From: Shigella phage JK23
Sequence record: MK962752
DNA: 64,000 nt
Direction: 5' to 3' (one strand)
Part shown: positions 3,640 through 63,989 of the stretch, piece by piece
Layout: every line of letters begins with the position of its first letter
Numbering within the stretch: position 1 is the stretch's first letter
Notes under the pieces: generated by a model
The model's input: the letters and a program-made list of their open reading frames with translations, nothing else
Databases searched by the model: none
What the model was told of the DNA's origin: nothing
Position numbers and translations under genes: made by a program

Positions 3640-5058
3640 TTATGGATAGGTATAGATGATACCAGTTTCTAAAGCAGTTTTATGAATGATGTATCCATTA
3701 CGCGATTCTTGAACATCAACTTCTGGATAGTCTTTCATCATCTTCTGAAGAGTGTAACGATGTAGGTAATATTTACTATCTGGGTCGTCAGTTTTCCAAT
3801 CTTTACCTTCTTCGGTCATTTTTTGGATTTCATCCATAACCCACCAACCGCACCAGATATAAGCTGAAGTACGATGTGGAAGAGGATGAACATAAGGTAG
3901 TTCACCTTCTGGTTCTGGAGCAACTTTATCAGTTACCTGAACTTGACCTTCTGCTGTAATAGTTTTGCTATCGTAATCAGTTGCAGTAACGACAGCAGTA
4001 ACTTCAATAGTTTGACTTCCAACAGATGAGGTATCGACAGTATATACGTTAGTTGACCCTTCTACAGGAGAAGAATCTTTCTTCCATGAGTAAGTAATTT
4101 GTGCTTCTTCTGGAGCACCCGTAACATTAGCCGTAAATGTAGCCGAAGCATCTTGCTGAACATTAATAGAAGGAGGAGTCAATGTAACCTGTGGATTCAT
4201 TGTCTTCTTATTAACTGTCAATGATACTTCATTAGAAGTAACTTCCTTTTCATTGTAATTTTCAGCAGTTACTTGAGCTACGCATTTAATTCTTTTTACT
4301 CCACTTGTAGTTGGAGTATAGTTAAATGTAGAGTTAGTTTCTCCACCAATTTGTGAATCATCTACATACCACTGATACGTAGCAGACGCTCCATCAGGTT
4401 GAGAAGCTAAGGCAGCAGTAAATTGAACTGGGGTTCCGATTACTCCCGCTGGAGGACTATCAGGAGTTACTGCCAAAGTAGTTGTCTGCGTCTTTTTATT
4501 AACAGTCAGTGACACTTCATTGGAAGTAACTTCCTTTGTATCATAATCTGTCGCGGTTACTTGAGCTACGCACTTAATTGTTTTAACTCCGCTTGCGTCA
4601 GGAGTGTAATTGAATGTAGTGCTAGTTGCTTCGCCCACAGGAGAACCGTCAACGTACCATTGATACGTAGCGTTTGCACCTGATGGCTGTGAAGCTAAGG
4701 CAGCGGTAAATTCAATTGGAGTTCCAATCACTCCAGCATCAGGGCTACCAGGAGTTACTGCCAAAGTAGTTGTTTGTGTCTTATTTTGAACTGTGATAGT
4801 TGTACTAATTTCAGCTGTTTCAGGTTCAGATTCTGCAACTTGATTGGTTGCAACTACTTTAATAGTCTTTTGACCGGCAGGTCCTTTTAGTACATAACTA
4901 AAAGTTGCTGACGTTTCTTCCTGTGGAGCGTCGTCTACAGTCCAAGCATATGTAATAGTTCCGCCTCCAGTTTCACCACTGGGTGTAGCAGTAAACTGCT
5001 TAGTTTCATCAATAACCCCTGTCGGTGTTTTAGGAGTTATATCAACTGTAAAAGTCAT
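3640..5058 (-). CDS. hoc: highly immunogenic outer capsid protein Hoc with four Ig-like domains
   Basis: 472 aa; N-terminus MTFTVDITPKTPTGVIDETKQF and C-terminal capsid-binding domain as in T4 Hoc; two adjacent ~96-aa Ig-like units nearly identical. Confidence 0.9.
   Translation of the reverse strand: MTFTVDITPKTPTGVIDETKQFTATPSGETGGGTITYAWTVDDAPQEETSATFSYVLKGPAGQKTIKVVATNQVAESEPETAEISTTITVQNKTQTTTLAVTPGSPDAGVIGTPIEFTAALASQPSGANATYQWYVDGSPVGEATSTTFNYTPDASGVKTIKCVAQVTATDYDTKEVTSNEVSLTVNKKTQTTTLAVTPDSPPAGVIGTPVQFTAALASQPDGASATYQWYVDDSQIGGETNSTFNYTPTTSGVKRIKCVAQVTAENYNEKEVTSNEVSLTVNKKTMNPQVTLTPPSINVQQDASATFTANVTGAPEEAQITYSWKKDSSPVEGSTNVYTVDTSSVGSQTIEVTAVVTATDYDSKTITAEGQVQVTDKVAPEPEGELPYVHPLPHRTSAYIWCGWWVMDEIQKMTEEGKDWKTDDPDSKYYLHRYTLQKMMKDYPEVDVQESRNGYIIHKTALETGIIYTYP
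4208..4783 (-). repeat. in-frame tandem repeat (2 x 288 bp, diverged copies) inside hoc
   Basis: Unit at 4208-4495 aligns with 4496-4783; encodes duplicated Ig-like domain. Confidence 0.8.
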
Positions 5059-16162: not shown

Positions 16163-16216
16163 TCCTCATGTTATGTCAGTAAGACTACTATAACACAACA
16201 CGAGGGACTTGTAAAC
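16163..16216 (-). promoter_or_regulatory. T4-type early promoter (54-bp element, copy A)
   Basis: Minus strand: GTTTAC, 18-nt spacer, TATAGT; identical 54-bp element recurs at 32133-32186. Confidence 0.65.
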
Positions 16217-18273
16217 TACATTTTGAACTTTTTAGACATTCCGTTGATGTTAACCAAAGAAGCTAATATTTGAGAAACTTCGTTTTCCTCTTCTTTTGAT
16301 TCTTCTACAAGGAATTGATTAAATCCAGCCATTGGACGAACTTCACCAGTTTCCATTAAATGGTCGCCATCATATACTGATTCTTCTAATTGGTCAGAAG
16401 GAGGAACGATTGTACCTTCGATTAGATACTTGTTATAAGCAGTTTCTTTCATAAAGTACGTACTTACTTTATTAATCTTTAGTAAAATTCCGCGCGGTAG
16501 AATAACTTCAGCTTCTGATGGAAATCCTGATAAATGACCCGGAACGATAACTTTGATTCGCTCAGCTCCTTTAATTACCATACCCACGCTAGTTTCAGCA
16601 TCTTCATTAGCATATGTAGAATGACTACCCATATGCATCAAATCTTCTGCATCAACAGAACCTTCTCCTTCGCCAGAAAATACTGCACCGGAATCATCTA
16701 GAGCCATATAGTTTTTACCATGCTCACCGAAGATATTTGGTTTAAGCGATGTCGATACGAAGTTCTTGAAATAGAACATTTTGTTTTCAATGTTATGACG
16801 CAAAGTTTTAAAGGTAACTTCTTGTCCACGATAAAGCGTAGTTCCTGGAGGAAGAACTGAACCTTTAGCGAATGCAGAATCCAACGTCTCAATGTGCTTA
16901 ATAGCTCGTTCCATATATTCTTCACGGGTAGAATCTGGTTTACCCAAAAGGAACGAGTTCATTTCAACATATGAATCTGCACAATAATCTTCAATTACAT
17001 CAGACTCAGCCTGAGTCAGTCCTTTTGGAGTTACTTCAGTGCTTGCGTATTCATATGCCTGAGCAGCAGATTCATTAATCAATTTATAAATGCCATTCAT
17101 GACAAATTGAATAATAGCTGTCTTTTCATCTGGCGTAGCTTTAGAACCTTTAACCAAATCATTGATAATTTTCTTAATAACATCAAAGCTATTAGAAATA
17201 TTAATATCAGCAAGATCGCTTAAAATTTTATCAGTTTTATAATCAAAGAATTCTTTATTCTTTAAATATTCTTGAGAACCTTGATATGTTATATCGCTCT
17301 GCAACTTGATAGATGGATCACGTAAACGTGCATGGGCCAATGCAATATGATTTCGGAAGTTTTCTAGTTCATAATCGCTAGATTTAAAACGAGAAGCACT
17401 TCTCATACCACCGATAGCTCCTTTGCCGAAGTTTGAACCAATCTGGATAACGCCAGAGTTCATCGGACCTTCTGCTTTATATACCGGAACTTTAGATTCA
17501 AACTCTTGATATTTCTTGGCAGCGAAGCCATCACCCTGAAGTGAAGCATCGACAGTAGAATATTGAGCTTGTGCTGCTAATCGACGACTAATTTTAGTTT
17601 TTTGAATAACAGCTTGATCCGTGCGCTTATCATTTTCTAAAGCAATAGAAGCAGCAACAGCGACAGCTTTAGGAACAGCATTACCTGTTTTAACATCTAC
17701 ATAAACATCACCGACCTTTGATTCAACTTTTGTGAATAACTCGGTTGAAATAGGAGGTACACCTGGAATGTCTTCTAAATTGGCATTTTTACGGTAAACC
17801 ATAATATATGCGTACTTTTTATCATAGTCCCAGATTTCCTTTAAAAGAACATATCGACCTGCTCCTTTAGTACGTACTAAACGGTCAGCAATAACTTGCA
17901 TTTGACGAGCTGCGCCATTTGTTTTACTTTTTAGTACGCGGAATAGACATGCGTCGATTTTATACTGTTTCATTGTTTGAAGAGCAGTATCAAAAACGGC
18001 ATTAATGACACCAATTGGATTTCCACCCAAGTTTTTAAGCTTAACTAATGATAGTTTCTCATTAACACCTATCATTACGATATGCATCATTTTATCGCCT
18101 GGTTTAACGTTTTTATTCGTATCACCACCAGAGGTGTATGTACAAAATCTAAATCCAGGAAGCACGCTTTCTTCGCCGGCTTGAATAGCAAAAATTTGTG
18201 GTATTTTATGCTTAGGATTTAAGTTAACAACCGGCGCCGAAGCGCCGTCAAATAATTCTGTAATAAGTTCCAT
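16216..18273 (-). CDS. Alt-like ADP-ribosyltransferase paralog, packaged internal head protein
   Basis: 685 aa; N-terminal MELITELFD capsid-targeting-like sequence; ART R-S-E pattern (YRGQ ... FVSTSL ... EAEVILPRG). Confidence 0.8.
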   Translation of the reverse strand: MELITELFDGASAPVVNLNPKHKIPQIFAIQAGEESVLPGFRFCTYTSGGDTNKNVKPGDKMMHIVMIGVNEKLSLVKLKNLGGNPIGVINAVFDTALQTMKQYKIDACLFRVLKSKTNGAARQMQVIADRLVRTKGAGRYVLLKEIWDYDKKYAYIMVYRKNANLEDIPGVPPISTELFTKVESKVGDVYVDVKTGNAVPKAVAVAASIALENDKRTDQAVIQKTKISRRLAAQAQYSTVDASLQGDGFAAKKYQEFESKVPVYKAEGPMNSGVIQIGSNFGKGAIGGMRSASRFKSSDYELENFRNHIALAHARLRDPSIKLQSDITYQGSQEYLKNKEFFDYKTDKILSDLADINISNSFDVIKKIINDLVKGSKATPDEKTAIIQFVMNGIYKLINESAAQAYEYASTEVTPKGLTQAESDVIEDYCADSYVEMNSFLLGKPDSTREEYMERAIKHIETLDSAFAKGSVLPPGTTLYRGQEVTFKTLRHNIENKMFYFKNFVSTSLKPNIFGEHGKNYMALDDSGAVFSGEGEGSVDAEDLMHMGSHSTYANEDAETSVGMVIKGAERIKVIVPGHLSGFPSEAEVILPRGILLKINKVSTYFMKETAYNKYLIEGTIVPPSDQLEESVYDGDHLMETGEVRPMAGFNQFLVEESKEEENEVSQILASLVNINGMSKKFKM

Positions 18274-18276
18274 GAT

Positions 18277-20373
18277 TTATCCTTGAACGAACTTGTAAGG
18301 CATGTTTGTAATATCTATGCAAGACGCAATAATTCCAAGAGATGATTCTACTTTCTGTTTAACATTTGATGAAACAAATGATGCAAAGTCAACTCTGTCT
18401 TCTACTTCAATATCACCTGTCATTGCAACTACTTCGCCGGTTTCCATTAGATGGTCACCGTCATAAATTACCGATTCGGTGAGTTCTTCTGTGGTCATAA
18501 CTTCAGCTTGAATAAGTTTTGTATTATTAGATGTTGTTCCGTCATTATTAGAAGCATCAGTTATTTTATTAACTTTAACCATCAATCCGCGCGGTAGAAT
18601 AACTTCAGCTTCTGTTGCTATTCCGAGACTTCCTGGATATACAACATTAACTTTATGAGCTCCATCAATTGCCCATCCTATTTGAACTTTAACGTATTCA
18701 GGATTTTCTTTATACGCTCTTATTTCGTTTGGATTAATAGTTATTCCTTCTTCATTTTTATCAACTGTTAATTCATTGCGAGCTTCTGGTTCTAAAAGAC
18801 CAATACCAGCATGTGTAATTCCAAAACGTCCAAAAATGATAGGAGTTAAAGAAGTAGATACAAAATTTCTGAAATAGAACACTTTATTTTTAACTAGTGC
18901 TTCGTATATAGGAGCAGTCATACTTTGAGCACGATAAACTGTAATGCCTTCTGGTATACGGTCACCATTTTCAAAAGCTGAATCTAAATTATTTATAGCA
19001 GATTCAATTTCTTTTTCACTCATTATATCATATCGTTCTGGATTGTAACGACCTAAAAGAAGATTATTGATGTCTGTATATCCTGAACCACAATACTCTC
19101 TAATGCCGCGCTTTTGTGATGGAGTATATTTAGAACCATCACGGGCAATAGTAATATCAATCATTGGACCTGCACCAATTCCGGAAAAGCTATAAATCAT
19201 TCGTTTGAGGAATTTAGTTTTTGCTGCATTCCAGGCATTTTTAGTTATTTCTCCCCAGACTTCATCTGGCTGCCCTTTACGAGTTTTATTATGTTTATCA
19301 AGCCAATTATCTTTATATTCTTCAAATAATTGATTAACAGCTGCTGCGTATTTCTCTAAACATTTTATTGAAGTAGTTGGTTCATTTTTAATCGCATTAA
19401 GAATTACATCTTTAATTTTTTCTGAAACTTCACCGACTTGACTCATTGGAAAGAATTTATAATCATAGTGAAGTTCATCTGCCGTTCCTTCAGCAATAAT
19501 TTTTGCTGCCTTAGTTTTAGAAGCTAATGAATTAATTCCAAGCTTCATTTCTTCTGCTTCGGGAATTAAAGGTGCAGTAGCAGGTTTATTGAAATTAGCT
19601 GCGGTAGATTCATACTTCTGGAATAATTCACTTTCAAATCTAGAAGATTCCAATGACTGACTTTGTGCAATTGCTCTACGGGAAATTTTAACTTTAACGA
19701 TTACGGCTTGGTCAGAACGTTTATCGTTTTCTTGTGCAATAGATGCAGCAATTGCCTCATTTTTGGTTACTTGAGCTCCAGTATCTTTATTAATATAAAC
19801 ATCACCGACCTTCGATTCAACTTTAGTAAAGAGCTCGGTACTAATTTCCGGAACTCCTGGAATGTCTTCTAGTGATACATTTTTGCGATGTATAAGAATA
19901 TATGCATACTTTTTATCATAATCCCAGAGTTCCTTAAGAAGGACGTATCTGCCACCTGAACGACTACGGATAAGTCTATCAGCAATAACTTGAATTTGTC
20001 GAGCTTGGCCAGCAGTTTTAGACTTAAGAATACGAAGCATACAAGCATCAATTTTATACTGACGCATTGTTTGCATTGCAACAGTAAAAACTGAATTGAT
20101 ATAATTAATTGGGCTTGGACCAAGACCTTTTAATTTAGCAATTGAACCTTTAGCAGTTAATGTAAAAGGAACAATATGCATCATTTTATCGCCCATTTTT
20201 AAATCACGATTAGTATCACCTCCAGATGTATAGGTACATAAACGAAAGCCTGGTTGTTCAATTGCATCATCAACATGAACTGAAAAAATTTGTGGTATTT
20301 TCTTCTTTGGATTTAAGTTTGTAATCGGAAGAGTAGTATCTTCGTCAAATAATTCTGTAATGAGTTCCATCAT
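18277..20373 (-). CDS. alt: Alt ADP-ribosyltransferase (internal head protein)
   Basis: 698 aa; N-terminal MMELITELFDEDTTLPITNLNPKKKIPQIF; ART motifs YRAQ ... FVSTSL ... EAEVILPRG; adjacent to gene 30 as in T4. Confidence 0.85.
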   Translation of the reverse strand: MMELITELFDEDTTLPITNLNPKKKIPQIFSVHVDDAIEQPGFRLCTYTSGGDTNRDLKMGDKMMHIVPFTLTAKGSIAKLKGLGPSPINYINSVFTVAMQTMRQYKIDACMLRILKSKTAGQARQIQVIADRLIRSRSGGRYVLLKELWDYDKKYAYILIHRKNVSLEDIPGVPEISTELFTKVESKVGDVYINKDTGAQVTKNEAIAASIAQENDKRSDQAVIVKVKISRRAIAQSQSLESSRFESELFQKYESTAANFNKPATAPLIPEAEEMKLGINSLASKTKAAKIIAEGTADELHYDYKFFPMSQVGEVSEKIKDVILNAIKNEPTTSIKCLEKYAAAVNQLFEEYKDNWLDKHNKTRKGQPDEVWGEITKNAWNAAKTKFLKRMIYSFSGIGAGPMIDITIARDGSKYTPSQKRGIREYCGSGYTDINNLLLGRYNPERYDIMSEKEIESAINNLDSAFENGDRIPEGITVYRAQSMTAPIYEALVKNKVFYFRNFVSTSLTPIIFGRFGITHAGIGLLEPEARNELTVDKNEEGITINPNEIRAYKENPEYVKVQIGWAIDGAHKVNVVYPGSLGIATEAEVILPRGLMVKVNKITDASNNDGTTSNNTKLIQAEVMTTEELTESVIYDGDHLMETGEVVAMTGDIEVEDRVDFASFVSSNVKQKVESSLGIIASCIDITNMPYKFVQG

Positions 20374-32132: not shown

Positions 32133-32186
32133 TCCTCATGTTATGTCAGTAAGACTACTATAACACAACACGAGGGACTTGTAAAC
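32133..32186 (-). promoter_or_regulatory. T4-type early promoter (54-bp element, copy B) upstream of alc
   Basis: Identical to 16163-16216; GTTTAC, 18 nt, TATAGT on minus strand. Confidence 0.65.
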
Positions 32187-40526: not shown

Positions 40527-40664
40527 TTTATTCTCCTTAGCAAGCTTTAATCAAAAGATATAAACAGACCAACATAACTGCTGCCATAATATAAGGTGCG
40601 AACATTTTCTTTTCTCCATTAGTTTTGATAGGGTAATAGTATCACACTACTACCCTGTTGTAAA

Positions 40665-44726: not shown

Positions 44727-47700
44727 ATGGCCGAGATTAAAAGAAAGTTCAGAGCAGAAGATGGTCTGGACGCAGGTGGCGATAAAATAATCAACGTAGC
44801 TTTAGCTGACCGTACCGTAGGAACTGACGGTGTTAACGTTGATTACTTAATTCAAGAAAACACAGTTCAGCAATATGATCCAACTCGTGGATATTTAAAA
44901 GATTTTGTAATCATTTATAATAATCGTTTTTGGGCAGCAACGGATAATATTCCAAAACCTGCTGGAAATTTTAATAGAATTCGTTGGAAAGCATTACGTA
45001 CTGATGCCGTATATACAACCGTATCATCTGGACCATATCAATTAAAATCCGGAGAAGCAATTTCAGTAGATACATCAGTTGGCAATGACATTGAGTTTAC
45101 TTTACCACCTTCTCCGCTTGATGGAGAAACCGTAATAATTCAAGATATCGGTGGAAAACCTGGCATAAATCAGGTTAAAATAAATTCTTCAAATCAGAGT
45201 ATTGTCAATTTTAGAGGTGAACAGGTACGTTCAGTTTTAATGACTCATCCAAAGTCACAGATGATATTCATTTTTAATAATCGTTTGTGGCAAATGTATG
45301 TTGCTGATTATAGCAGAGAAGCTGCGATTGTTACTCCATCGACTGCGTATCAAGCACAATCTAATGATTTTATCGTACGTAGATTTACTTCTGCTGCACC
45401 AATTAATGTTAAACTTCCGAGATTTGCTAATCATGGCGATATTATTAATTTCGTTGATTTAGATAAACTGAATCCACTTTATCATACAATTGTTACTACA
45501 TACGATGAAACGACTTCAGTACAAGAAGTTGGAACTCATTCCATTGAAGGCCGTACATCGATTGACGGTTTCTTGATGTTTGACGATAATGAGAAATTGT
45601 GGAGATTGTTTGACGGGGATAGTAAAGCACGTTTACGCATTATAACAACTAATTCAAATATTCGTCCAAATGAAGAAGTCATGGTATTTGGCGCGAATAA
45701 TGGAACAACCCAAACAATTGAACTTCAGCTTCCGACTGATATTTCTGTTGGTGATACTGTTAAAATTTCCATGAATTACATGAGAAAAGGACAAACAGTT
45801 AAAATCAAAGCTGCTGGTGAAGATAAAATTGCTTCTTCAGTTCAATTGCTGCAATTCCCAAAACGTTCAGAATATCCGCCTGAAGCTGAATGGGTAACAG
45901 TTCAAGAATTAGTTTTTAATGGTGAAACTAATTATGTACCAGTTTTGCAACTTGCTTATATAGAAGATTCTGATGGAAAATACTGGGTTGTACAGCAAAA
46001 CGTTCCAACAGTTGAAAGAGTCGATTCTTTAAATAATTCTACTAGAGCAAGATTAGGCGTAATTGCTTTAGCTACACAAGCTCAAGCAAATGCTGATTTA
46101 GAAAATTCTCCACAAAAAGAATTAGCAATTACTCCAGAAACGTTAGCTAATCGTACTGCTACTGAAACTCGCAGAGGTATTGCAAGAATAGCAACTACTG
46201 CTCAAGTAAATCAGAACACCACATTCTCTTTTGCAGATGACCTTATCATCACTCCTAAAAAGCTGAATGAAAGAACTGCTACAGAAACTCGCAGAGGTGT
46301 TGCTGAAATTGCTACGCAGCAGGAAACTAATACAGGTATCGATGATACTACAATCATCACTCCTAAAAAGCTTCAAGCTCGTCAAGGTTCTGAAACATTA
46401 TCGGGTATTGTAACTTTTGTATCTACTGCAGGAGCTACTCCAGCTTCTAGTCGTGAATTAAATGGTACAAATGTTTATAATAAAAACACTAATAATTTAG
46501 TTGTTTCACCTAAAGCTTTGGATCAGTATAAAGCTACTCCAACGCAACAAGGCGCAGTAATTTTAGCAGTTGAAAGTGAAGTAATTGCTGGACAAAGCCA
46601 AGAAGGATGGGCAAATGCGGTTGTAACACCAGAAACGTTACATAAAAAGACATCAACTGATGGAAGAATTGGTTTAATTGAAATTGCTACGCAAAGCGAA
46701 GTTAATACAGGAACTGATTATACTCGCGCAGTCACTCCTAAAACTTTAAATGACCGTAGAGCAACTGAAAGTTTAAGTGGTATAGCTGAAATTGCTACGC
46801 AAGTTGAATTCGACGCAGGCGTCGACGATACTCGTATCTCTACACCATTAAAAATTAAAACCAGATTTAATAGTACTGATCGTACTTCTGTTGTTGCTCT
46901 ATCTGGATTAGTTGAATCAGGAACTCTCTGGGACCATTATACCCTTAATATTCTTGAAGCAAATGAGACACAGCGTGGTACACTTCGTGTAGCTACACAA
47001 GTTGAAGCTGCTGCAGGAACATTGGATAATGTTCTAATAACTCCTAAAAAGCTTTTAGGTACTAAATCTACTGAAGCACAGGAAGGCGTTATTAAAGTTG
47101 CAACTCGGTCTGAAACTGTAGCTGGAACGTCAGCAAATACTGCTGTATCTCCAAAAAATTTAAAATGGATTGTGCAGAGTGAACCTACTTGGGCAGCGAC
47201 TACTGCGATAAGAGGTTTTGTTAAAACTTCGTCTGGTTCAATTACATTCGTTGGTAATGATACAGCTGGTTCAACACAGCCATTAGAATCATATGAGAAA
47301 AATGGTTATGCAGTATCACCATATGAATTAAATCGCGTATTAGCAAATTATTTGCCATTAAAAGCAAAAGCCGTAGATAGTAATTTATTAGATGGTCTAG
47401 ATTCGCTCCAGTTCATTCGTAGGGACATTGCACAAACAGTTAATGGTTCACTAACCTTAACCCAACAAACGAATCTGGGTGCCCCTCTTGTATCATCTAG
47501 TACTGCTACATTCGGTGGATCAGTTTCAGCAAATAGTACATTAACTATTTCTAATACTGGAACGGCAACTCGTCTGATTTTTGAGAAAGGACCTCAAACT
47601 GGAACAAACCCGGCTCAAACGATGACAGTCAGAGTGTGGGGAAATCAATTTAGCGGGGAATCAGACACAACACGTTCTACCGTATTTGAAGTTAGTGATG

Positions 47701-48596
47701 AAACGTCTAGTCATTTTTATTCTCAGCGTAATAAAGCTGGAAATATAACATTTAATATCAACGGTACAGTAACACCGATAAATGTTAATGCTTCAGGAAC
47801 ATTGAATGCAAATGGTGTAGCAACATTTGGTAATTCAGTCACTGCAACTGGTGAAATTATTTCTCGAAGCGCAAATGCTTTCCGTGCTATTAACGGAAAT
47901 TATGGTTTCATTGTTCGCAATGATGGATCAGTAACGAATTTTATGCTTACTGCATCAGGCAATCAGACTGGTGGATTTAATGGATTACGTCCATTGTCCA
48001 TTAATAATCAATCTGGGCAGGTCACAATTGGTGAAAGCTTGATCATTGCTAAAGGTGCTACTATAAATTCAGGTGGTTTAACTGTTAACTCGAGAATTCG
48101 TTCTCAAGGTGTTAAAACATCTGATTTATATACCCGTGCGCCGACATCTGATACTGTAGGATTCTGGTCAATCGATATTAATGATTCAGCCACTTATAAC
48201 CAGTTCCCGGGTTATTTTAAAATGGTTGAAAAAACTAATGAAGTTACTGGACTTCCATACTTAGAACGTGGTGAAGAAGTTAAATCTCCTGGTACATTGA
48301 CTCAGTTTGGTAACACACTTGATTCACTTTACCAAGATTGGATTACTTATCCAACGACCCCAGAAGCACGTACCACTCGCTGGACACGTACATGGCAGAA
48401 AACCAAAAACTCTTGGTCAAGTTTTGTTCAGGTATTTGACGGAGGTAACCCTCCTCAACCTTCAGATATAGGAGCGATCCCATCTGATAATGGAATAATA
48501 GGTAATCTTACTATTCGCGATTTCTTACGAATTGGTAATGTTCGCATTATTCCTGACCCAGTGAATAAAACTGTTAAATTTGAATGGGTTGAATAA
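44727..48596 (+). CDS. 34: long tail fiber proximal subunit gp34
   Basis: 1289 aa; internal ~24-aa repeats (TPKKL ... TETRRGIA/VAxIAT). Confidence 0.92.
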   Translation: MAEIKRKFRAEDGLDAGGDKIINVALADRTVGTDGVNVDYLIQENTVQQYDPTRGYLKDFVIIYNNRFWAATDNIPKPAGNFNRIRWKALRTDAVYTTVSSGPYQLKSGEAISVDTSVGNDIEFTLPPSPLDGETVIIQDIGGKPGINQVKINSSNQSIVNFRGEQVRSVLMTHPKSQMIFIFNNRLWQMYVADYSREAAIVTPSTAYQAQSNDFIVRRFTSAAPINVKLPRFANHGDIINFVDLDKLNPLYHTIVTTYDETTSVQEVGTHSIEGRTSIDGFLMFDDNEKLWRLFDGDSKARLRIITTNSNIRPNEEVMVFGANNGTTQTIELQLPTDISVGDTVKISMNYMRKGQTVKIKAAGEDKIASSVQLLQFPKRSEYPPEAEWVTVQELVFNGETNYVPVLQLAYIEDSDGKYWVVQQNVPTVERVDSLNNSTRARLGVIALATQAQANADLENSPQKELAITPETLANRTATETRRGIARIATTAQVNQNTTFSFADDLIITPKKLNERTATETRRGVAEIATQQETNTGIDDTTIITPKKLQARQGSETLSGIVTFVSTAGATPASSRELNGTNVYNKNTNNLVVSPKALDQYKATPTQQGAVILAVESEVIAGQSQEGWANAVVTPETLHKKTSTDGRIGLIEIATQSEVNTGTDYTRAVTPKTLNDRRATESLSGIAEIATQVEFDAGVDDTRISTPLKIKTRFNSTDRTSVVALSGLVESGTLWDHYTLNILEANETQRGTLRVATQVEAAAGTLDNVLITPKKLLGTKSTEAQEGVIKVATRSETVAGTSANTAVSPKNLKWIVQSEPTWAATTAIRGFVKTSSGSITFVGNDTAGSTQPLESYEKNGYAVSPYELNRVLANYLPLKAKAVDSNLLDGLDSLQFIRRDIAQTVNGSLTLTQQTNLGAPLVSSSTATFGGSVSANSTLTISNTGTATRLIFEKGPQTGTNPAQTMTVRVWGNQFSGESDTTRSTVFEVSDETSSHFYSQRNKAGNITFNINGTVTPINVNASGTLNANGVATFGNSVTATGEIISRSANAFRAINGNYGFIVRNDGSVTNFMLTASGNQTGGFNGLRPLSINNQSGQVTIGESLIIAKGATINSGGLTVNSRIRSQGVKTSDLYTRAPTSDTVGFWSIDINDSATYNQFPGYFKMVEKTNEVTGLPYLERGEEVKSPGTLTQFGNTLDSLYQDWITYPTTPEARTTRWTRTWQKTKNSWSSFVQVFDGGNPPQPSDIGAIPSDNGIIGNLTIRDFLRIGNVRIIPDPVNKTVKFEWVE

Positions 48597-48604
48597 GAGG
48601 TATT

Positions 48605-49720
48605 ATGGAAAAATTTATGGCAGAGTTTGGACAAGGATATGTCCAAACGCCATTTTTATCGGAAAGCAATTCAGTAAGATATAAAATAAGTATAGCGGGT
48701 TCTTGCCCGCTTTCTACAGCAGGACCATATGTTAAATTTCAAGATAATCCTGTAGGAAGTCAAACATTTAGCGCAGGTCTTCATTTAAAAGTTTTTGACC
48801 CTTCTACAGGAGCATTAGTTGACAGTAAATCATATGCTTTTTCTACTTCAAATAATACTACATCAGCTGCTTTTGTTAGTTTCATGAATTCTTTGTCAAA
48901 CAATAGACTTGTTGCTATATTAACTAGCGGAAAGGTTAATTTTCCTCCTGAAGTGGTATCTTGGTTAAGGGGAGCAGGAACTTCAGTTTTTCCATCAGAT
49001 TCAGTATTGTCAAGATTTGACGTATCATATGCTGCTTTTTATACTTCTTCTAAAAGAGCTATTGCATTAGAGCATGTTAAACTAAGTAATAGAAAAAGCA
49101 CAGATGATTATCAAACTATTTTAGATGTTGTATTTGATAGTTTAGAAGACGTCGGAGCGACAGGATTTCCAAAAAGAACTTATGAAAGTGTCGAGCAATT
49201 CATGTCAGCAGTTGGTGGAACTAATAACGAAATTGCGCGATTGCCAACTTCAGCTGCTATAAGTAAACTTTCTGACTATAATTTAATTCCTGGTGATGTT
49301 CTTTATCTTAAAGCACAGTTATATGCTGATGCTGATTTACTTGATCTTGGAACTACAAACATATCCATTCGTTTTTATGATGCATCAAATGGATATATTT
49401 CCTCTACCCAAGCTGAGTTTACTGGGCAAGCTGGGTCTTGGGAATTAAAAGAAGATTATGTAGTTGTTCCTGAAAATGCAGTAGGATTTACGATATATGC
49501 ACAAAGAACTGCCCAAGCAGGTCAAGGCGGCATGAGAAATTTAAGCTTTTCTGAAGTATCAAGAAATGGCGGCATTTCAAAACCTGCCGAATTTGGCGTC
49601 AACGGTATTCGCGTTAATTATGTCTGCGAATCGGCTTCACCTCCAGATATAATGGTACTTCCTACACAAGCCTCTTCTAAAACTGGCAAAGTGTTTGGGC
49701 AAGAATTTAGAGAAGTTTAA
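48605..49720 (+). CDS. 35: long tail fiber hinge (knee) protein gp35
   Basis: 371 aa; between 34 and 36. Confidence 0.88.
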   Translation: MEKFMAEFGQGYVQTPFLSESNSVRYKISIAGSCPLSTAGPYVKFQDNPVGSQTFSAGLHLKVFDPSTGALVDSKSYAFSTSNNTTSAAFVSFMNSLSNNRLVAILTSGKVNFPPEVVSWLRGAGTSVFPSDSVLSRFDVSYAAFYTSSKRAIALEHVKLSNRKSTDDYQTILDVVFDSLEDVGATGFPKRTYESVEQFMSAVGGTNNEIARLPTSAAISKLSDYNLIPGDVLYLKAQLYADADLLDLGTTNISIRFYDASNGYISSTQAEFTGQAGSWELKEDYVVVPENAVGFTIYAQRTAQAGQGGMRNLSFSEVSRNGGISKPAEFGVNGIRVNYVCESASPPDIMVLPTQASSKTGKVFGQEFREV

Positions 49721-49751: not shown

Positions 49752-49759
49752 TATAAATA
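49752..49759 (+). promoter_or_regulatory. T4-type late promoter (TATAAATA) for genes 36-37-38
   Basis: Exact TATAAATA ~24 nt upstream of gene 36 ATG. Confidence 0.65.
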
Positions 49760-49782: not shown

Positions 49783-50433
49783 ATGGCTGATTTAAAAGTA
49801 GGTTCAACTGTTGGTGGATCTGTCATTTGGCATCAAGGAAATTTTCCATTGAATTCAGCCGGTGACGATGTACTCTACAAATCATTTAAAATATATTCAG
49901 AATATAATAAACCGCAGGCAGCTGATAACGATTTCGTTTCTAAAGCTAATGGTGGTACTTACACCGGTCCAATTACTATTAATTACGGGGTAAATAGTTA
50001 TCTTCAATTAAGTAATAATGAAACCCCCATCCGAATTCGTTCTGGTGGCGGCACTGGTAATACTCTTGTAGTTGGTGGCTCTTCTGGCGGTATTAGTTTT
50101 AGACCAGCAGGTAGTGAAATCACTACTGGACAAATTACTATTACGCCAGAAGGTTTGACAACATTTACCAAAGCTGTAACGGCTCCATCTGTAACTGTCA
50201 CATCTACTCCTTCCGCAGCATCTGATGCTACTCGTAAAGATTATGTTGATGGAGCAATAAATACTGTTACAGCAAATGCAAACTCTAGGGTATTACGCTC
50301 TGGAGACACTATGACAGGAAATTTAACTGCGCCAAACCTTTTTTCACAGAATCCTGCATCTCAACCTTCACACGTTCCACGATTTGACCAAATCGTAATT
50401 AAGGATTCTGTTCAAGATTTCGGCTATTATTAA
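49783..50433 (+). CDS. 36: long tail fiber distal connector gp36
   Basis: 216 aa; shares GDTMTG motif with gp37. Confidence 0.88.
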
Positions 50434-50441
50434 GAGGACTT

Positions 50442-52361
50442 ATGGCTACTTTAAAACAAATACAATTTAAAAGAAGCAAAACTGCAGGTCAACGTCCTGC
50501 TGCTTCAGTATTAGCCGAAGGTGAATTGGCTATAAACTTAAAAGATAAAACAATTTTCACAAAAGATGACTCAGGTAGTGTTATAGAATTAGGTTTAAAA
50601 TATGGAGGAACAATTGATGGTTCTTTAACTGTTAATGGAAATATAATTGGAAATTTAACAGGTAACGCTGCAACTGCAACGAAATTAAAAACAGCACGAA
50701 AAATTAATGGTATATCCTTTGATGGGTCAAAGGATATCACGCTAACTCCATCTGACATAAATGTCAATAGCACAACATTTATAAAAAATAATGGCGAATT
50801 ACCTGTTGATGCTAATTTAGATGAGTATGGGCCTGTTGAAGAATATCTTGGTGTTTGGTCGAAAGCAACTTCAACCAACGCTCAACCAGCAAATAAATTT
50901 CCAGAAGAAAATGCTGTAGGTGTGCTAGAAGTATTTGTGGCCGGTCAATTTGCTGGTACTCAGAGATATACAACTAGATACGGAAATGTTTATATTCGTT
51001 CCTTGACTGCTACATGGAACGGAGTAAATGGTCCGTGGAGTGTGTGGCGAAATATTCAATCCGGTACTCGTCCACTGTCAACAACAATTGATCTTAATGA
51101 TCTAGGAGGCGCTGAACACTTTGGTTTGTGGCGAAATAGTTCAAATTCCATTGCTACCTTTGACAGAAATTTCCCAGAAGAGGGGTCGTCAGCTCAAGGT
51201 CTTTTGGAAGTATATGAAGGTGGAAACTATTCTCGTACACAAAGATATACAACCAGATTTGGTGTTGTATATACTCGTTGTCTTGCTGCCGCGTGGGATG
51301 CTTCCGCGCCTAAATGGGGACCGTGGCAACAAGTCGGTAATGTCACACCAGCGACTTTCTATGACGGAGATCTGAATGATTTTAAAACCCCTGGGTTATA
51401 TAATATTTTAGGCACTGATGCCGTTATTAACTGTCCTACAGGTGAAGGTTTGCCGACTGTTATTGTTGGTTTGCTGGAAGTTAAACAACGTGCTTCTGGC
51501 GGTGCTATTTTCCAAAAATTTACTACTGCCGGAACGGGTGCAACTACTCGCGATCGTATTTTTGAGCGTGCATATACTGGTGGTGTGTGGGGTGCATGGA
51601 ACGAAGTATATACATCTTACTCTCTGCCAATTACTTTAGGTATGGGTGGTATTAAAACTCAATTAGCGGAGCTAGATTGGCAAACATTTGATTTTGTTCC
51701 TGGTAGTATGTTTAGCGTTCCTTTGAACAAAATAAAGAACATGCCAGCTAATATGAATTGGGGCACGATTGACGGAAACTTAATTATGTTTTCTGTTGGT
51801 CCTAGCGAGCACACCAGCACAGGACGTACTGTTCAGGTTTGGCGTGGAACTGTATCCCAGACAAACTATCGTTATTTTGTCGTTCGTGTGTTCGGTAATT
51901 CTGGAAATAGAACTTGCACAGTTCGCCGTGTTGTTCTTGAAGACGGATCACATACTTGGACTGCTCAACAAAACTTTAGGGGATTGCTGAATATCACTGC
52001 TGCTGTTAATCTTGGTGCTAATCAGAAAATTTCACTTGCTCCAGGAGCATATATTCAAGCCCCTGCTAGCGGTTCTGGTTCTAATACTTACGCAAATCAG
52101 AATACTACCATTGCGCCATTATATCAGGCTATTGACGATTCAAATAAAAACCAGTTTGCGCCAATTGTTAAACAGAAAAATACTGTAAGTAATATCACCT
52201 TTGCCACTGGTATGGCTATAGGTACATCCGAATATAAGATCATTGCTCAGGGTGATTTATCCGCTGATGGAACAGCAGATGGGTTAAAACAGTGGACTTT
52301 CATGCCGTCAGGTTATTTTAAATCTCCAGGGCGTGTATATGTCATTATATCAGGCTATTGA
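50442..52361 (+). CDS. 37: long tail fiber distal subunit gp37, 5' part; frame broken by a 226-bp tandem duplication
   Basis: N-terminus [13 protein letters not shown] as in T-even gp37; frame ends at TGA 52359-52361 inside the second repeat copy. Confidence 0.75.
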
Positions 52362-52569
52362 CGATTCAAATAAAAACCAGTTTGCGCCAATTGTTAAACA
52401 GAAAAATACTGTAAGTAATATCACCTTTGCCACTGGTATGGCTATAGGTACATCCGAATATAAGATCATTGCTCAGGGTGATTTATCCGCTGATGGAACA
52501 GCAGATGGGTTAAAACAGTGGACTTTCATGCCGTCAGGTTATTTTAAATCTCCAGGGCGTGTATATGTC
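52118..52569 (+). repeat. perfect direct tandem duplication, 2 x 226 bp, inside gene 37
   Basis: 52118-52343 is identical to 52344-52569; 226 is not divisible by 3. Confidence 0.9.
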
Positions 52570-53613
52570 GGTGATGCGTTCCTTAATACAGATGGTAATA
52601 TTGCCGGTTCAATCTGGAAGAAATATAACAATGCGACAAATTTAGATGCTGCCTTGAATACTCGCGTAGGTAAAGGCGGTGATACGATGACAGGTCGGTT
52701 AACAATCAATGCACCTAATGATTCTATTGTATTATCAACGACTGCTAGTAATTCTTTGCATATTCGTGGTGACATAGACGGGACTGGTAACTGGTATATT
52801 GGTAAGGGTGGTGCTGATAATTCGCTAGCATTTTATAGCTATGCTTCTCAGGCGGCAGTACATATCACAAACAATGGTGAGATTGCGTTAAACCCGCAAA
52901 ATACCGCAATGGTTAACGTTAACCGTGACCGTGTACACATTAACGGTTCTGGATGGATTGCTAGACAACCGGGTGATTGGGGCAACCAATGGCGAGTAGA
53001 AGCTCCATTATTCGTTGATCATGGTTATGTTTCACAGGATTGTTATTATCCTATTCTTAAAGCAAGAAGCGTTATAACCAATCAAGGATATAGCACCGCT
53101 GTTGACTTTGGTATGCGTCGTATTCCATCACAGTGGGGGCAAGCAATCATTCGTGTCGGATCCACGGAGGCTTCTCCTGATGCTGGACACCCACAAGCTA
53201 TATTTGAATTCCATCATGATGGATTCTTTTATACACCAGGAAATGGTAGCTTTAGCGATGTGTATATTCGTTCTGACTCCCGTCTCAAGATTAATAAAGA
53301 AGAATTAGAATATGGAGCGGTCGAAAAAGTTTGCCGACTGAAAGTTTATATTTACGATAAAGTTAAGTCTATTAAAGACCGTAGTGTTATTAAACGTGAA
53401 GTTGGTATTATTGCTCAGGACCTTGAAAAGGAATTACCGGAAGCTGTATCTAAAGTTGAAGTTGATGGATCTGATGTTCTGACAATTTCTAACTCTGCTG
53501 TGAATGCTCTTTTAATTAAGGCTATTCAGGAAATGAGTGAAGAAATTAAAGAATTGAAAACGCCTCTCTTTACTAAAATTGCTCGCAAAATTAGTAAATA
53601 TTTTAAATTCTAA
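52333..53613 (+). CDS. 37: long tail fiber distal subunit gp37, 3' part (in frame only downstream of the duplication)
   Basis: Track ORF (GTG start) resumes gp37 frame; C-terminal domain carries an SDxRxK motif like intramolecular-chaperone autoproteolysis sites. Confidence 0.65.
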
Positions 53614-53649: not shown

Positions 53650-54432
53650 ATGGCAGTAGTTGGTGTTCCTGGTTGGATTGGAAGTTCAGCCGCAAATGAA
53701 ACAGGACAGCGCTGGATGAGTCAAGCGGCTGGTCAATTAAGATTGGGTGTTCCTTGCTGGATGAGTCAATTTGCAGGTCGCTCACGAGAAATTATTCACA
53801 CGCTTGGAGCAGACCATAACTTCAATGGTCAATGGTTCCGAGATAGATGTTTTGAGGCAGGTAGTGCACCTATAGTGTTTAATATTACAGGTGATTTAGT
53901 ATCATATTCTAAAGATGTTCCTTTATTCTTCATGTACGGAGATACACCAAATGAATATGTTCAGTTAAATATACATGGCGTAACGATGTATGGACGTGGC
54001 GGTAATGGTGGTAGCAATAGTCCTGGCTCAGCTGGAGGTCATTGTATTCAAAACGATATTGGTGGGAGACTAAGAATTAATAATGGTGGAGCTATTGCTG
54101 GCGGCGGTGGCGGCGGTGGCGGCGGATATTATTCTCCTTTTTCACAAATGAGATTAACCTTTGGCGGTGGTGGTGGGCGTCCGTTTGGTGCACCTGGCGG
54201 ATCTATTGATATGCAATCAGGCGCAACTGCTGGTACTATTTCTGCACCTGGCTCAGGATCCGTGAATGGTATCTATAATGGTGGAAACGGTGGTGAAGTA
54301 GGTTCCGCGGGAGGTAGATGCAATATTCGCGGTCAAGGATCTGAATATAATGGCGGCGCTGCTGGTTATGCTGTCATAGGGTCTGCTCCAACGTGGCAAA
54401 ATGTTGGAGCAATATATGGTCCAAGAGTATAA
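53650..54432 (+). CDS. 38: gp38 receptor-binding adhesin (T2-type) with glycine-rich motifs
   Basis: 260 aa; poly-Gly/Gly-rich blocks separated by variable segments; follows gene 37. Confidence 0.85.
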
Positions 54433-54462: not shown

Positions 54463-55119
54463 ATGGCAGCACCTAGAATATCATTTTCGCCCTCTGATAT
54501 TCTATTTGGTGTTCTAGATCGCTTGTTCAAAGATAACGCTACCGGGAAGGTTCTTGCTTCCCGGGTAGCTGTCGTAATTCTTTTATTTATGATGGCGATT
54601 GTTTGGTATAGGGGAGATAGTTTCTTTGAGTACTATAAGCAATCAAAGTATGAAACATACAGTGAAATTATTGAAAAGGAAAGAAATGCACGCTTTGAAT
54701 CTGTCGCCCTGGAACAACTCCAGATAGTTCATATATCATCTGAGGCAGACTTTAGTGCGGTGTATTCTTTCCGCCCTAAAAACTTAAACTATTTTGTTGA
54801 TATTATAGCATATGAAGGAAGATTACCTTCAACAATAACTGAAAAATCACTTGGAGGATATCCTGTTGATAAAACTATGGATGAATATACAGTTCATTTA
54901 AATGGACGTCATTATTATTCCGACTCAAAATTTGCTTTTTTACCAACTAAAAAGCCTACTCCCGAAATAAACTACATGTACAGTTGTCCATATTTTAATT
55001 TGGATAATATCTATGCTGGAACAATAACCATGTACTGGTATAGAAATGATCATATAAGTAATGACCGCCTTGAATCAATATGTGCTCAGGCGGCCAGAAT
55101 ATTAGGAAGGGCTAAATAA
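54463..55119 (+). CDS. t: holin T
   Basis: 218 aa; single N-terminal transmembrane segment and large periplasmic domain. Confidence 0.9.
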   Translation: MAAPRISFSPSDILFGVLDRLFKDNATGKVLASRVAVVILLFMMAIVWYRGDSFFEYYKQSKYETYSEIIEKERNARFESVALEQLQIVHISSEADFSAVYSFRPKNLNYFVDIIAYEGRLPSTITEKSLGGYPVDKTMDEYTVHLNGRHYYSDSKFAFLPTKKPTPEINYMYSCPYFNLDNIYAGTITMYWYRNDHISNDRLESICAQAARILGRAK

Positions 55120-56414: not shown

Positions 56415-56875
56415 TAGTAAAGGTCCTCAGAGTAAAGTTCTTTTTCACTACCACCACGTTCAATACGTACTTGTCCAGCGTAAGTTGCAATAATCATTGC
56501 TTCTTCACGTGTCCAATAATTACTATATTGGTCAATAAACCCTTGGTCATCATCACAAACTTGTTGAGTAACTAATTGAGGTTTAACTATATCTAAAACT
56601 TCGGCCATATCTTTAGAATAATGACGAGCACCTGGAATAATAAGAGTTCGTCCATCTTTTAATTTAAAACGGTTGGCTGCACAGACAATTCGTCGTTGAT
56701 ACTTTTGGTTTTTATCCCAGTACGCAGTCTGCCAACAGATTTCAGGAACTTCATCTAAAACATTTTGTTCTGTATATTCACCGCCGTAAGAAGCTAATTT
56801 AGCAGCCAGACTTTCCGGAGTCTCACGTAACAAAGCTTTATCTAACAGAGCTAAACGTTCTTTAAAAGTTTTCAT
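56414..56875 (-). CDS. hypothetical protein (arn.3 position)
   Basis: 153-aa ATG ORF. Confidence 0.65.
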
Positions 56876-57201
56876 TTAAACCATCCTTTAATACGTTGCC
56901 ACAAAGTTTTCTGTTGAGCTTTGTTAACACCAATTGAACGAATAACTGGTTGAGATTCCTGGAATTCTTTATAATCGGCAAGGTAAATTTCGTAAGCTGT
57001 ATCAGTAAATGAACTTATCGCTGCCATGAAATTATTGCGAATACCTACCGGAGCATCCTTATTTTCACGAATAATCATGTATTTACCAGTCTTAATCTTT
57101 ACAATAGTTCCAAGATAAGCTCCGTGGTACCAAATATCCCAACCCTCTTGAGTAGGTTCTGCACAACGACGAAGTTCATTAATAATTTCTAACTTGTTCA
57201 T
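56872..57201 (-). CDS. hypothetical protein (arn.4/motA.1 position)
   Basis: 109-aa ATG ORF. Confidence 0.6.
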
Positions 57202-57211
57202 TATTTATTCC

Positions 57212-57847
57212 TCACAGTTCAGATGCTACAGCGATTACTGCTTCAATGTTTTCTGCTGAGCGTTTAATGTCAAGATACACATTACCGTTTTTAGCGATTT
57301 TACATGACATTCCGATATCAGTAAATTTCTGAATATGATGTTCCATCATTTTGTATCCAAAAATTCGCATATTTCCATTATTGTTAATTTCAAAATTACG
57401 AATTCCGTGAGTACGTTTTTCTAAAATAGCGAGATAGTTACTGCGGTAAGTTTCAACCTTTTTAAGAACAAATCCATTTTCATCTAAAAGTTTTAACATG
57501 AGGTCTTTATCTTCTTCCATATCAGAAGTAATCTCACGAGCTTTACGAGTTGCTCGTTTTTTCAGTAGTTCCGGAGCATTTTCCTGTGCGTATAAAGTTG
57601 CTGCGTTTGAAATAATATCCTGGGCTTCACCTGTAATGATTAATCCATCACCAGATTTCTCCACCAGGCCTTTTTTAATCAATACCCCAATATTACTATT
57701 AACTACTGCGTTACCTAAATCTGGATGCACCTCACGAACTTCTGCAGCTGTAATGAAATCTTTCTTAGCAATAGTAATTAAAATCGCAGCAGTTTTTTCA
57801 TTCAGAACATCGTTAGAAGCTTTGATGATGTAAGTTACTTTAGACAT
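57212..57847 (-). CDS. motA: MotA activator of middle transcription
   Basis: 211 aa; matches T4 MotA size and sequence. Confidence 0.92.
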   Translation of the reverse strand: MSKVTYIIKASNDVLNEKTAAILITIAKKDFITAAEVREVHPDLGNAVVNSNIGVLIKKGLVEKSGDGLIITGEAQDIISNAATLYAQENAPELLKKRATRKAREITSDMEEDKDLMLKLLDENGFVLKKVETYRSNYLAILEKRTHGIRNFEINNNGNMRIFGYKMMEHHIQKFTDIGMSCKIAKNGNVYLDIKRSAENIEAVIAVASEL

Positions 57848-57888
57848 TTTCTAATCTCCGTAATTCTGTATCAGTAGTTGATAGTTGT

Positions 57889-57918
57889 ATAGTACCACAG
57901 TATGCTTTGGTTGTAAAC
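57889..57918 (-). promoter_or_regulatory. T4-type early promoter for motA
   Basis: Minus strand GTTTAC, 18 nt, TACTAT, with A/T-rich UP element upstream. Confidence 0.65.
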
Positions 57919-63050: not shown

Positions 63051-63989
63051 TTATTTAAATTGCTCAGTAACGTCTTCAACTACTTCGTATTGGCAGGTAC
63101 GCATTTTAGCATCGTTGTAATCAATCGGAATTGATACTACATCGCGAGGATGAACTTTAACTTTTACAACTCGGCTGGTTGAACTGCCAAAGTGACGAAT
63201 ATAAGATTTAGAACACACATGCAGACCACGAGAACAAGTTTGTGTATCATCGTCATTCACACGAGTACGTGGCATTTTAACTACTTTACCCGGACTGTTA
63301 TCAAAGGTGTTTGAGTGACAGTCAAAGTAATTGCTGCGAACTACTTTCCAAGCATAGAAGTAGCCATCTTCTGTAATTTCAATATCGTTTGCTACCAAGA
63401 AATCAAAGAGTCGAGATACTGCTTTTTGGCTTGGGTTTTCCAGCAGATTTTCCAAGAACGGAAAATAAAATTCAAAGTTTTCGCCTTTTTCCATCGAGTC
63501 AAGAATACGATCAACCAAACCAGACCGCAATTCAATATTTTGATAGAACAAGCTTCCACCTTCAATTCGAACATCGCCGGAAATATATTTTTCAACAGCG
63601 CGACGAACATTAATTTTTTGTGCCGCTTCTTCCAACTTATCCGCTACAAGCAGATTAAGAATTTCCTGGAAGTTTGAATGAGTATTAGGAGTTGCGTTAT
63701 AAGTTACACCGTCAACAGTAATTGAAATGAATTTTTTAGATGCATTCCAAATAATGTCAGATTTAGCAACTGGAGCAATAACTGCATCGCTATTAACTTT
63801 AACTGTAATATCACCGCTAATAGTAACTTTAGGGCGTTTAGCTTCTTCAGCATTTTTCAAAACACGACGGATTGTGTCAACCGATACACCTTGCCAATCA
63901 GCCAATTCCTGTTGGGTGTAATTACCACTTGAATACAGCTTAACAATTTCAGCTTGTTCGTTTTTGGTCAGGCATTTAATATTGTACAT
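63051..63989 (-). CDS. rIIB: rIIB protein
   Basis: 312 aa; N-terminus MYNIKCLTKNEQAEIVKLYSSG as in T4 rIIB; a TAA at 63998-64000 may be the rIIA stop. Confidence 0.92.
   Translation of the reverse strand: MYNIKCLTKNEQAEIVKLYSSGNYTQQELADWQGVSVDTIRRVLKNAEEAKRPKVTISGDITVKVNSDAVIAPVAKSDIIWNASKKFISITVDGVTYNATPNTHSNFQEILNLLVADKLEEAAQKINVRRAVEKYISGDVRIEGGSLFYQNIELRSGLVDRILDSMEKGENFEFYFPFLENLLENPSQKAVSRLFDFLVANDIEITEDGYFYAWKVVRSNYFDCHSNTFDNSPGKVVKMPRTRVNDDDTQTCSRGLHVCSKSYIRHFGSSTSRVVKVKVHPRDVVSIPIDYNDAKMRTCQYEVVEDVTEQFK

Follow-up and report, generated by a model that had tools for sequence, protein, structure and literature searches.

Gene 37 of the long tail fiber is interrupted by an exact 226-bp tandem duplication in the stretch of Shigella phage JK23 DNA analyzed here (record MK962752; 64,000 nucleotides, referred to below as the window). 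The duplication is most likely not a real biological feature. Based on the layout of the record and on comparison with related phages, we infer that it is probably a finishing artefact, which would have arisen when the end overlap of a circular assembly was joined without trimming. In the phage itself, it is almost certain that the duplicated unit is present once and that gp37 has its normal length of 981 aa.

The two copies of the 226-bp unit are directly adjacent, which was found with Tandem Repeats Finder (period 226, 2.0 copies, 100% matches, score 906) and was confirmed by direct string comparison, in agreement with the original prediction. The coordinates of the copies and the sequences at their borders are as follows.

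52118..52343, plus strand: copy 1 of the 226-bp unit, corresponding to gp37 codons 559-634 plus 1 nt (Tandem Repeats Finder, string identity)
52344..52569, plus strand: copy 2 of the 226-bp unit, 100% identical (Tandem Repeats Finder, string identity)
52343/52344: novel junction, gtatatgtC/ATTATATC
Junction-spanning sequence: ...GTATATGTCATTATATC...; junction 26-mer: GCGTGTATATGTCATTATATCAGGCT
The two normal unit boundaries: ...ACCATTGCGCCATTATATCAGG... and GCGTGTATATGTCGGTGATGCGTTCC

The boundary of the unit is ambiguous by 1 base, a shared C, and the copies can be placed either at 52117-52342 and 52343-52568 or at the coordinates listed above. Among long exact tandem repeats, this duplication is the sole example in the 64-kb window, and chance is impossible as the source of an exact tandem repeat of 226 bp. 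The shared C amounts to 1 bp of homology at the junction. This microhomology had been pointed out previously and is indeed present; however, its extent is at the level of chance, with random junctions in the window having exactly 1 bp of homology in 28% of cases and at least 1 bp in 46%. The junction would therefore fit a blunt join and lends no support to homology-guided recombination. The TATAT motifs at both ends of the unit (52120-52124 and 52336-52340) had also been pointed out. A role for them in the crossover was rejected, since they are 216 bp apart rather than 226 bp and are thus out of register with the junction as crossover homology.

The length of the unit is not a multiple of three (226 = 75 x 3 + 1), and the gp37 frame enters copy 2 out of frame. 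As a result, gp37 as written is split into two reading frames.

50442..52361, plus strand: gp37 frame as written, 639 aa, consisting of 634 native residues followed by IISGY, with a TGA stop at 52359-52361
52333..53613, plus strand: C-terminal gp37 frame, from GTG 52333 or ATG 52339 to the stop, which holds the trimerisation region and the Peptidase_S74 intramolecular chaperone

The position of the premature stop is as originally predicted. The downstream frame had been thought to resume only inside copy 2, which is not the case: it is open already from 52288, inside the last 56 nt of copy 1, where the candidate starts GTG 52333 and ATG 52339 are located. When one copy is removed, a single gene of 2946 nt is restored (981 codons with a single terminal stop), consistent with the predicted gene of about 981 codons. 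The restored protein aligns gap-free over residues 1-981 with the gp37 of relatives, with 98.98% identity to that of APTC-EC-2A and 98.68% identity to that of Escherichia phage vB_EcoM_G4498 (G4498).

The consequences of the split for the protein were analyzed with Pfam. The downstream fragment contains PF20744 (2e-06), which covers the trimerisation region, and PF13884 (2.3e-10), the S74 chaperone. Both are confined to this fragment, and the 226-bp unit lies upstream of both. In the upstream 639-aa fragment, which bears the N-terminus that joins gp36, the Pfam search found no domain and no recognized folding domain. Exact look-ups of the 639-aa and 424-aa fragment proteins showed that both are absent from protein collections, and an exact look-up of gp34 likewise gave no hit. 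A sequence search of the PDB with the duplicated segment gave no match at E<=0.001. With the trimerisation and S74 regions severed from the gp36-joining N-terminus, the phage as written would lack a full distal fiber, as had been predicted. Such a fiber-defective phage is hard to reconcile with one that was propagated and sequenced.

The window corresponds to the right-hand 64 kb of a Tequatrovirus (T4-like) genome and is 99.0-99.1% identical to G4498 over tens of kb. The genes surrounding the duplication form the long-tail-fiber module, in agreement with the gp37/gp38 context described previously.

44727-48596: gp34
48605-49720: gp35
49783..50433, plus strand: gp36, intact
from 50442, plus strand: gp37 start
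53650..54432, plus strand: gp38 adhesin (T2/T6 type), intact, 260 aa (Pfam GP38 3e-72, Gp38_N 6e-20)
54463-55119: holin

The T4 late-promoter consensus nearest to the junction, TATAAATA, is found at 49752-49759, ahead of gp36, and genes 36-37-38 would share one late transcript. The Pfam assignments, a Peptidase_S74 intramolecular-chaperone domain at the C-terminus of gp37 together with a gp38 adhesin, identify the fiber as T2/T6-type. In phages of this type, the C-terminus of gp37 is cleaved and then capped by gp38 (PMC3157838). The gp38 gene itself contains an exact 9-nt tandem repeat, (TGGCGGCGG)x3 at 54099-54125, which codes for a glycine-rich stretch of the adhesin.

Comparison with relatives revealed a single copy of the unit in all 57 phage records that cover gp37 over its full length (span 2946 bp each). 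When the junction was used as a query, every matching phage record aligned in two pieces that wrap one single unit, and the junction was not found in one piece in any of 50,697 phage records. It was likewise not found in IMG/VR, in complete E. coli genomes, or in E. coli plasmids. The junction was also not found in metagenome contigs, a result of low weight given that just one of these contigs has the normal boundary. At the protein level, restored gp37 was compared with 5.8 billion proteins. The best 120 homologues are 919-995 aa long, along with one fragment of 822 aa from a short contig, and neither a truncation near residue 639 nor an in-frame duplication of the segment was seen among these best 120. 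The closest gp37 in this collection differs by 8 residues and comes from another strain. In addition, a gp38 protein identical to that of JK23 is present on 38 blocks of contigs, and in 10 out of 10 places inspected it adjoins an intact gp37 of 981-1031 aa. The DNA identity of the contigs carrying this gp38 is at most 98%.

We considered whether the interruption of gp37 reflects poor overall quality of the assembly. The 83 genes of G4498 that overlap the window were translated and searched against it, and gp37 was the only one found to be interrupted. No frameshift was found in the remaining 82, which are either intact or missing altogether, and general poor quality was rejected on this basis. 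The 32.7 kb upstream of the junction align to G4498 with 99.1% identity and 3 gaps. The window thus appears otherwise clean, with the break in gp37 as a single isolated lesion. Elsewhere, at ~56860-57900, the window lacks two small ORFs of G4498, one of 51 aa and one of 75 aa; the alignment is broken and rearranged in this region, indicating a probable replacement of accessory genes.

T4-type genomes are circularly permuted and are packaged by a headful mechanism, and by homology to T4 the same should hold for the phage of the window. Reads from such a genome would assemble as a circle, which the assembler would output as a linear contig with the same sequence at its first and last bases. In the case of JK23, the contig would have ended inside gene 37 with an overlap of 226 bp. 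Closure of this contig and its rotation to the T4 convention (end in rIIB, start in rIIA), with one copy of the overlap left untrimmed, would leave the middle of gene 37 with an exact tandem duplication that is blind to the reading frame, in which 52343/52344 would mark the old contig end joined to the old contig start. We infer that the JK23 record passed through these steps of closure and rotation without trimming.

The end of the record bears on this proposal. The conventional origin of the T4 genome is rIIB/rIIA, and rIIB is located at the end of the window.

63051-63989, minus strand: rIIB; the window end (64000) is 11 bp beyond the rIIB start codon

The last base of the window, 64000, corresponds to the last base of the G4498 record (position 167826; BLAST end-to-end). 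Since the two ends coincide to the base, the source genome was evidently re-linearized by its authors after assembly, and a rotation at that stage would turn an end overlap into an internal tandem repeat. The duplication sits ~11.4 kb from the record end and is hence internal, as would be expected of an overlap in a genome that was rotated to the T4 origin.

Untrimmed end overlaps do occur in related records. Among related "complete genome" records, six in which the coordinates of gp37 are unusual were checked, a small and non-random sample, and exact end overlaps were kept in two of the six, or in two of the four with an arbitrary start.

Killian, OQ446694.1: 77-bp exact end overlap, which maps to window 50413-50489, at the gp36/gp37 boundary
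HEMP5, OR424388.1: 127-bp exact end overlap, which maps to window 46675-46801, inside gp34 and on an internal repeat; flagged circular

Neither length is a multiple of three, and both overlaps fall within the long-tail-fiber gene cluster, as does the 226-bp duplication. Joining ends of this type would yield a frame-blind tandem duplication of the kind seen in JK23. Because HEMP5 is flagged as circular, a duplication of this type is formally present in it already. Contig ends with artificial overlaps, such as the 127-bp overlaps from SPAdes, are a recognized artefact that is to be removed (PMC5923482), and repeats misplaced in the middle of a record, together with frameshift assembly errors, are common faults of phage submissions (PMC8785237). 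The JK23 repeat resembles the untrimmed contig-end overlaps (PMC5923482; Killian and HEMP5) in that it is exact, in that the overlaps become tandem once joined, in its disregard of genes and frame, and in its absence from relatives. The overlaps differ in that they have standard k-mer lengths and lie at the ends of records, whereas the JK23 repeat is 226 bp long and internal.

Taken together, several observations speak for an artefact: the copies are exact and adjacent, the length of the unit ignores the reading frame, the duplication falls in the middle of a gene, and the relatives are all single-copy. The gene that it breaks is also an indispensable one, in which the trimerisation region and the S74 chaperone remain only in the downstream fragment. 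Two observations speak against it. The length of 226 bp does not match any of the standard de Bruijn k-mer overlaps (55, 77, 99, or 127 for SPAdes), unlike the 77 and 127 bp of the two comparators, and therefore a different assembler, or the joining of two overlapping contigs, must be assumed. Moreover, T-even phages do form real tandem duplications, gene 37 included.

The main rival to the finishing artefact builds on these last two points. It holds that the duplication is real DNA that arose by illegitimate recombination and was present in a defective subpopulation, or in a recently arisen majority of a high-titre stock, with co-infection by fiber-proficient genomes and with an assembler that traversed the loop. 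We consider this explanation possible but rather unlikely. The lack of any divergence between the two copies would fit a very recent event, T-even phages are known for unstable tandem duplications, with gene 37 among the affected genes, and 226 bp is atypical as an assembler overlap. However, the frameshift severs the N-terminus, which binds gp36, from the trimerisation and chaperone region at the C-terminus; particles made from genomes of this kind are non-infectious, and the genomes should remain a minority of the sort that does not normally appear in a consensus assembly. The junction is found nowhere else among phage records, IMG/VR, metagenome contigs, E. coli genomes, and plasmids, its homology is only at chance level, and the rotation of the record together with the overlaps documented in relatives offers a simpler route to the same sequence. 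The defective or mixed population put forward in the original prediction is possible but less likely than an artefact.

Known duplications in T-even phages differ from that in JK23 in several respects. Those described by Tetart, Repoila, Monod, and Krisch in 1996 are reportedly in frame and located in the C-terminal adhesin domain of T4-type gp37; they are said to form between short conserved motifs and to yield functional fibers with altered host range. JK23 shares with these T4 host-range duplications a tandem duplication within a T-even gene 37. In JK23, however, the duplication is out of frame (226 = 75 x 3 + 1), leads to the stop at 52359-52361, and leaves no full-length fiber; its position is in the shaft of a gp37 of the T2 type, ahead of the trimerisation region and S74, and its junction has chance-level homology. 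The classical unstable tandem duplications of T4 (rII region, 1960s-70s) were recovered under selection for the duplication and are not known to have inactivated an essential gene. The likeness to JK23 lies in exact direct repeats that are removable by homologous recombination; whereas the rII duplications were selected for, in JK23 no selection is apparent and an essential gene is broken. For tandem duplication within gene 37 of T-even phages, PMC3157838 cites Tetart et al. 1996 (J Mol Biol 258:726).

The window itself contains another tandem repeat within a coding sequence. An intact ORF at 3640..5058 (minus strand, 472 aa) has a 288-nt (96-codon) tandem repeat at 4202-4489 and 4490-4777, which is in frame and whose copies are 77% identical. 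The encoded protein consists of Ig/PKD-like repeats (Pfam PKD 8.8e-12, Ig_3, I-set) and resembles capsid decoration proteins of the Hoc type, with one Ig-like domain added, which would be a genuine, diverged duplication. This repeat, being in frame and diverged, has the look of an evolved, functional duplication, whereas the 226-bp repeat is exact and out of frame.

Two further explanations would give the duplication a function or a means of being tolerated, and both are unlikely, with no positive support. One is a reversible off-switch, in which the tandem copies inactivate gp37 and homologous recombination restores it, resulting in phase-variable adsorption. It is true that gp37 is formally revertible, as the loss of one copy restores the gene exactly, and T4 recombination would in principle readily excise one of two 226-bp direct repeats. 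Against this, the relatives show neither the duplication nor a trace of one, and neither a repeat nor homology is present at the unit ends to regenerate the duplicated state at a useful frequency. Without end homology to re-form the duplication, the switch would run one way only. Moreover, a fiberless particle cannot infect a cell in order to revert there. The on/off switch raised in the original prediction was therefore not sustained, given the unconserved duplication, the absence of its junction from relatives, the lack of homology at the junction, and the lack of any signal for rescue of expression; we consider it very improbable.

The other explanation, which we rate lower still, is that the fiber is expressed despite the frameshift, either by +1 frameshifting at UAU UGA C (52356-52362) or by a restart at ATG 52339 with polypeptides that co-assemble. 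The site has a superficial resemblance to prfB-type programmed +1 frameshifting, in that +1 is the direction required, the stop in the 0 frame is UGA followed by C, and an AGG lies shortly upstream. As for the restart, ATG 52339 shares its frame with the C-terminal part and is preceded, at a distance of 7 nt, by a weak AGGG. However, tRNA-Tyr on UAU cannot re-pair on the +1-frame AUU, and a slippery codon is thus lacking. The local RNA folds no more stably than shuffled sequences (z -0.39), and the UAU-UGA-C site was created by the duplication itself and is conserved in no relative. Unlike the prfB type, the JK23 site therefore lacks a slippery P-site codon, is not conserved, and is not accompanied by a stimulatory structure. 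The N-terminal fragment would be without the C-terminal trimerisation region and the S74 chaperone, and the C-terminal polypeptide produced by a restart at ATG 52339 would be free, having no connection to gp36. No promoter or terminator signal was found near the junction. In the absence of a slippery codon, a structure, and an internal promoter or terminator, a programmed frameshift or restart was rejected. More broadly, there is a slim chance that the duplication is real and in the majority in an infectious stock, in which case the fiber would be rescued by low-level +1 recoding or by a restart that gives a split gp37, or the stock would be a helper-borne mixture that reverts by recombination.

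The original prediction had set an artefact, a defective or mixed population, and a switch side by side and had made no choice among them. Its description of the duplication and its artefact option are supported, and the evidence, namely the single copy in 57 of 57 relatives, the rotation of the record, and the overlaps in relatives, favors the artefact over a defective or mixed population. Read collapse, which had been named alongside assembly as a source of the artefact, is the wrong mechanism, since collapse removes copies, and it is unsupported, as is the switch.

The value of the finding lies mainly in quality control, as the record as written denies the phage its distal long tail fiber. 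Gene callers would emit two fragment proteins that are absent from databases, and analyses of host range or receptor-binding proteins would misread the phage. The correction is to delete 52344-52569 (226 bp), which gives the normal 981-aa gp37. For those who mine genomes, the public "complete genomes" of Killian and HEMP5 likewise retain end overlaps, of 77 and 127 bp, in the tail-fiber cluster. If reads were to back the duplication, JK23 would represent a rare case in which a lethal tandem duplication was captured while it persisted in a T-even stock.

Several other repeats and paralogs were observed in the window. Within gp34, a 68-nt internal repeat is present in three copies (46128-46195, 46248-46315, and 46731-46798) that are 66-72% identical to the reference copy, reflecting repeated fiber motifs. 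The ends of the HEMP5 contig fall on the third of these copies, which suggests that internal repeats such as those of gp34 are break points in assemblies of these genomes. An exact 54-nt direct repeat, which ends in ...GGGACTTGTAAAC, occurs at 16163-16216 and 32133-32186, ~16 kb apart, and is identical in G4498. Its first copy (16163-16216) is just downstream of an Alt-like gene, and the repeat is probably a shared regulatory region. A further family has six 55-nt repeats, at 40623, 41337, 55411, 57876, 61186, and 61911, with identities of 64-82% to the reference copy. Their minus strand resembles T4 early promoters (GTTTAC ... TAxxAT), and they are located upstream of minus-strand early genes. 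Finally, two adjoining paralogous genes for Alt-like ADP-ribosyltransferases are found at 16219-20370. The first encodes a protein with 99% identity to its G4498 counterpart and the second a protein with ~71% identity, and the second gene thus appears to be a local patch of divergence from G4498.
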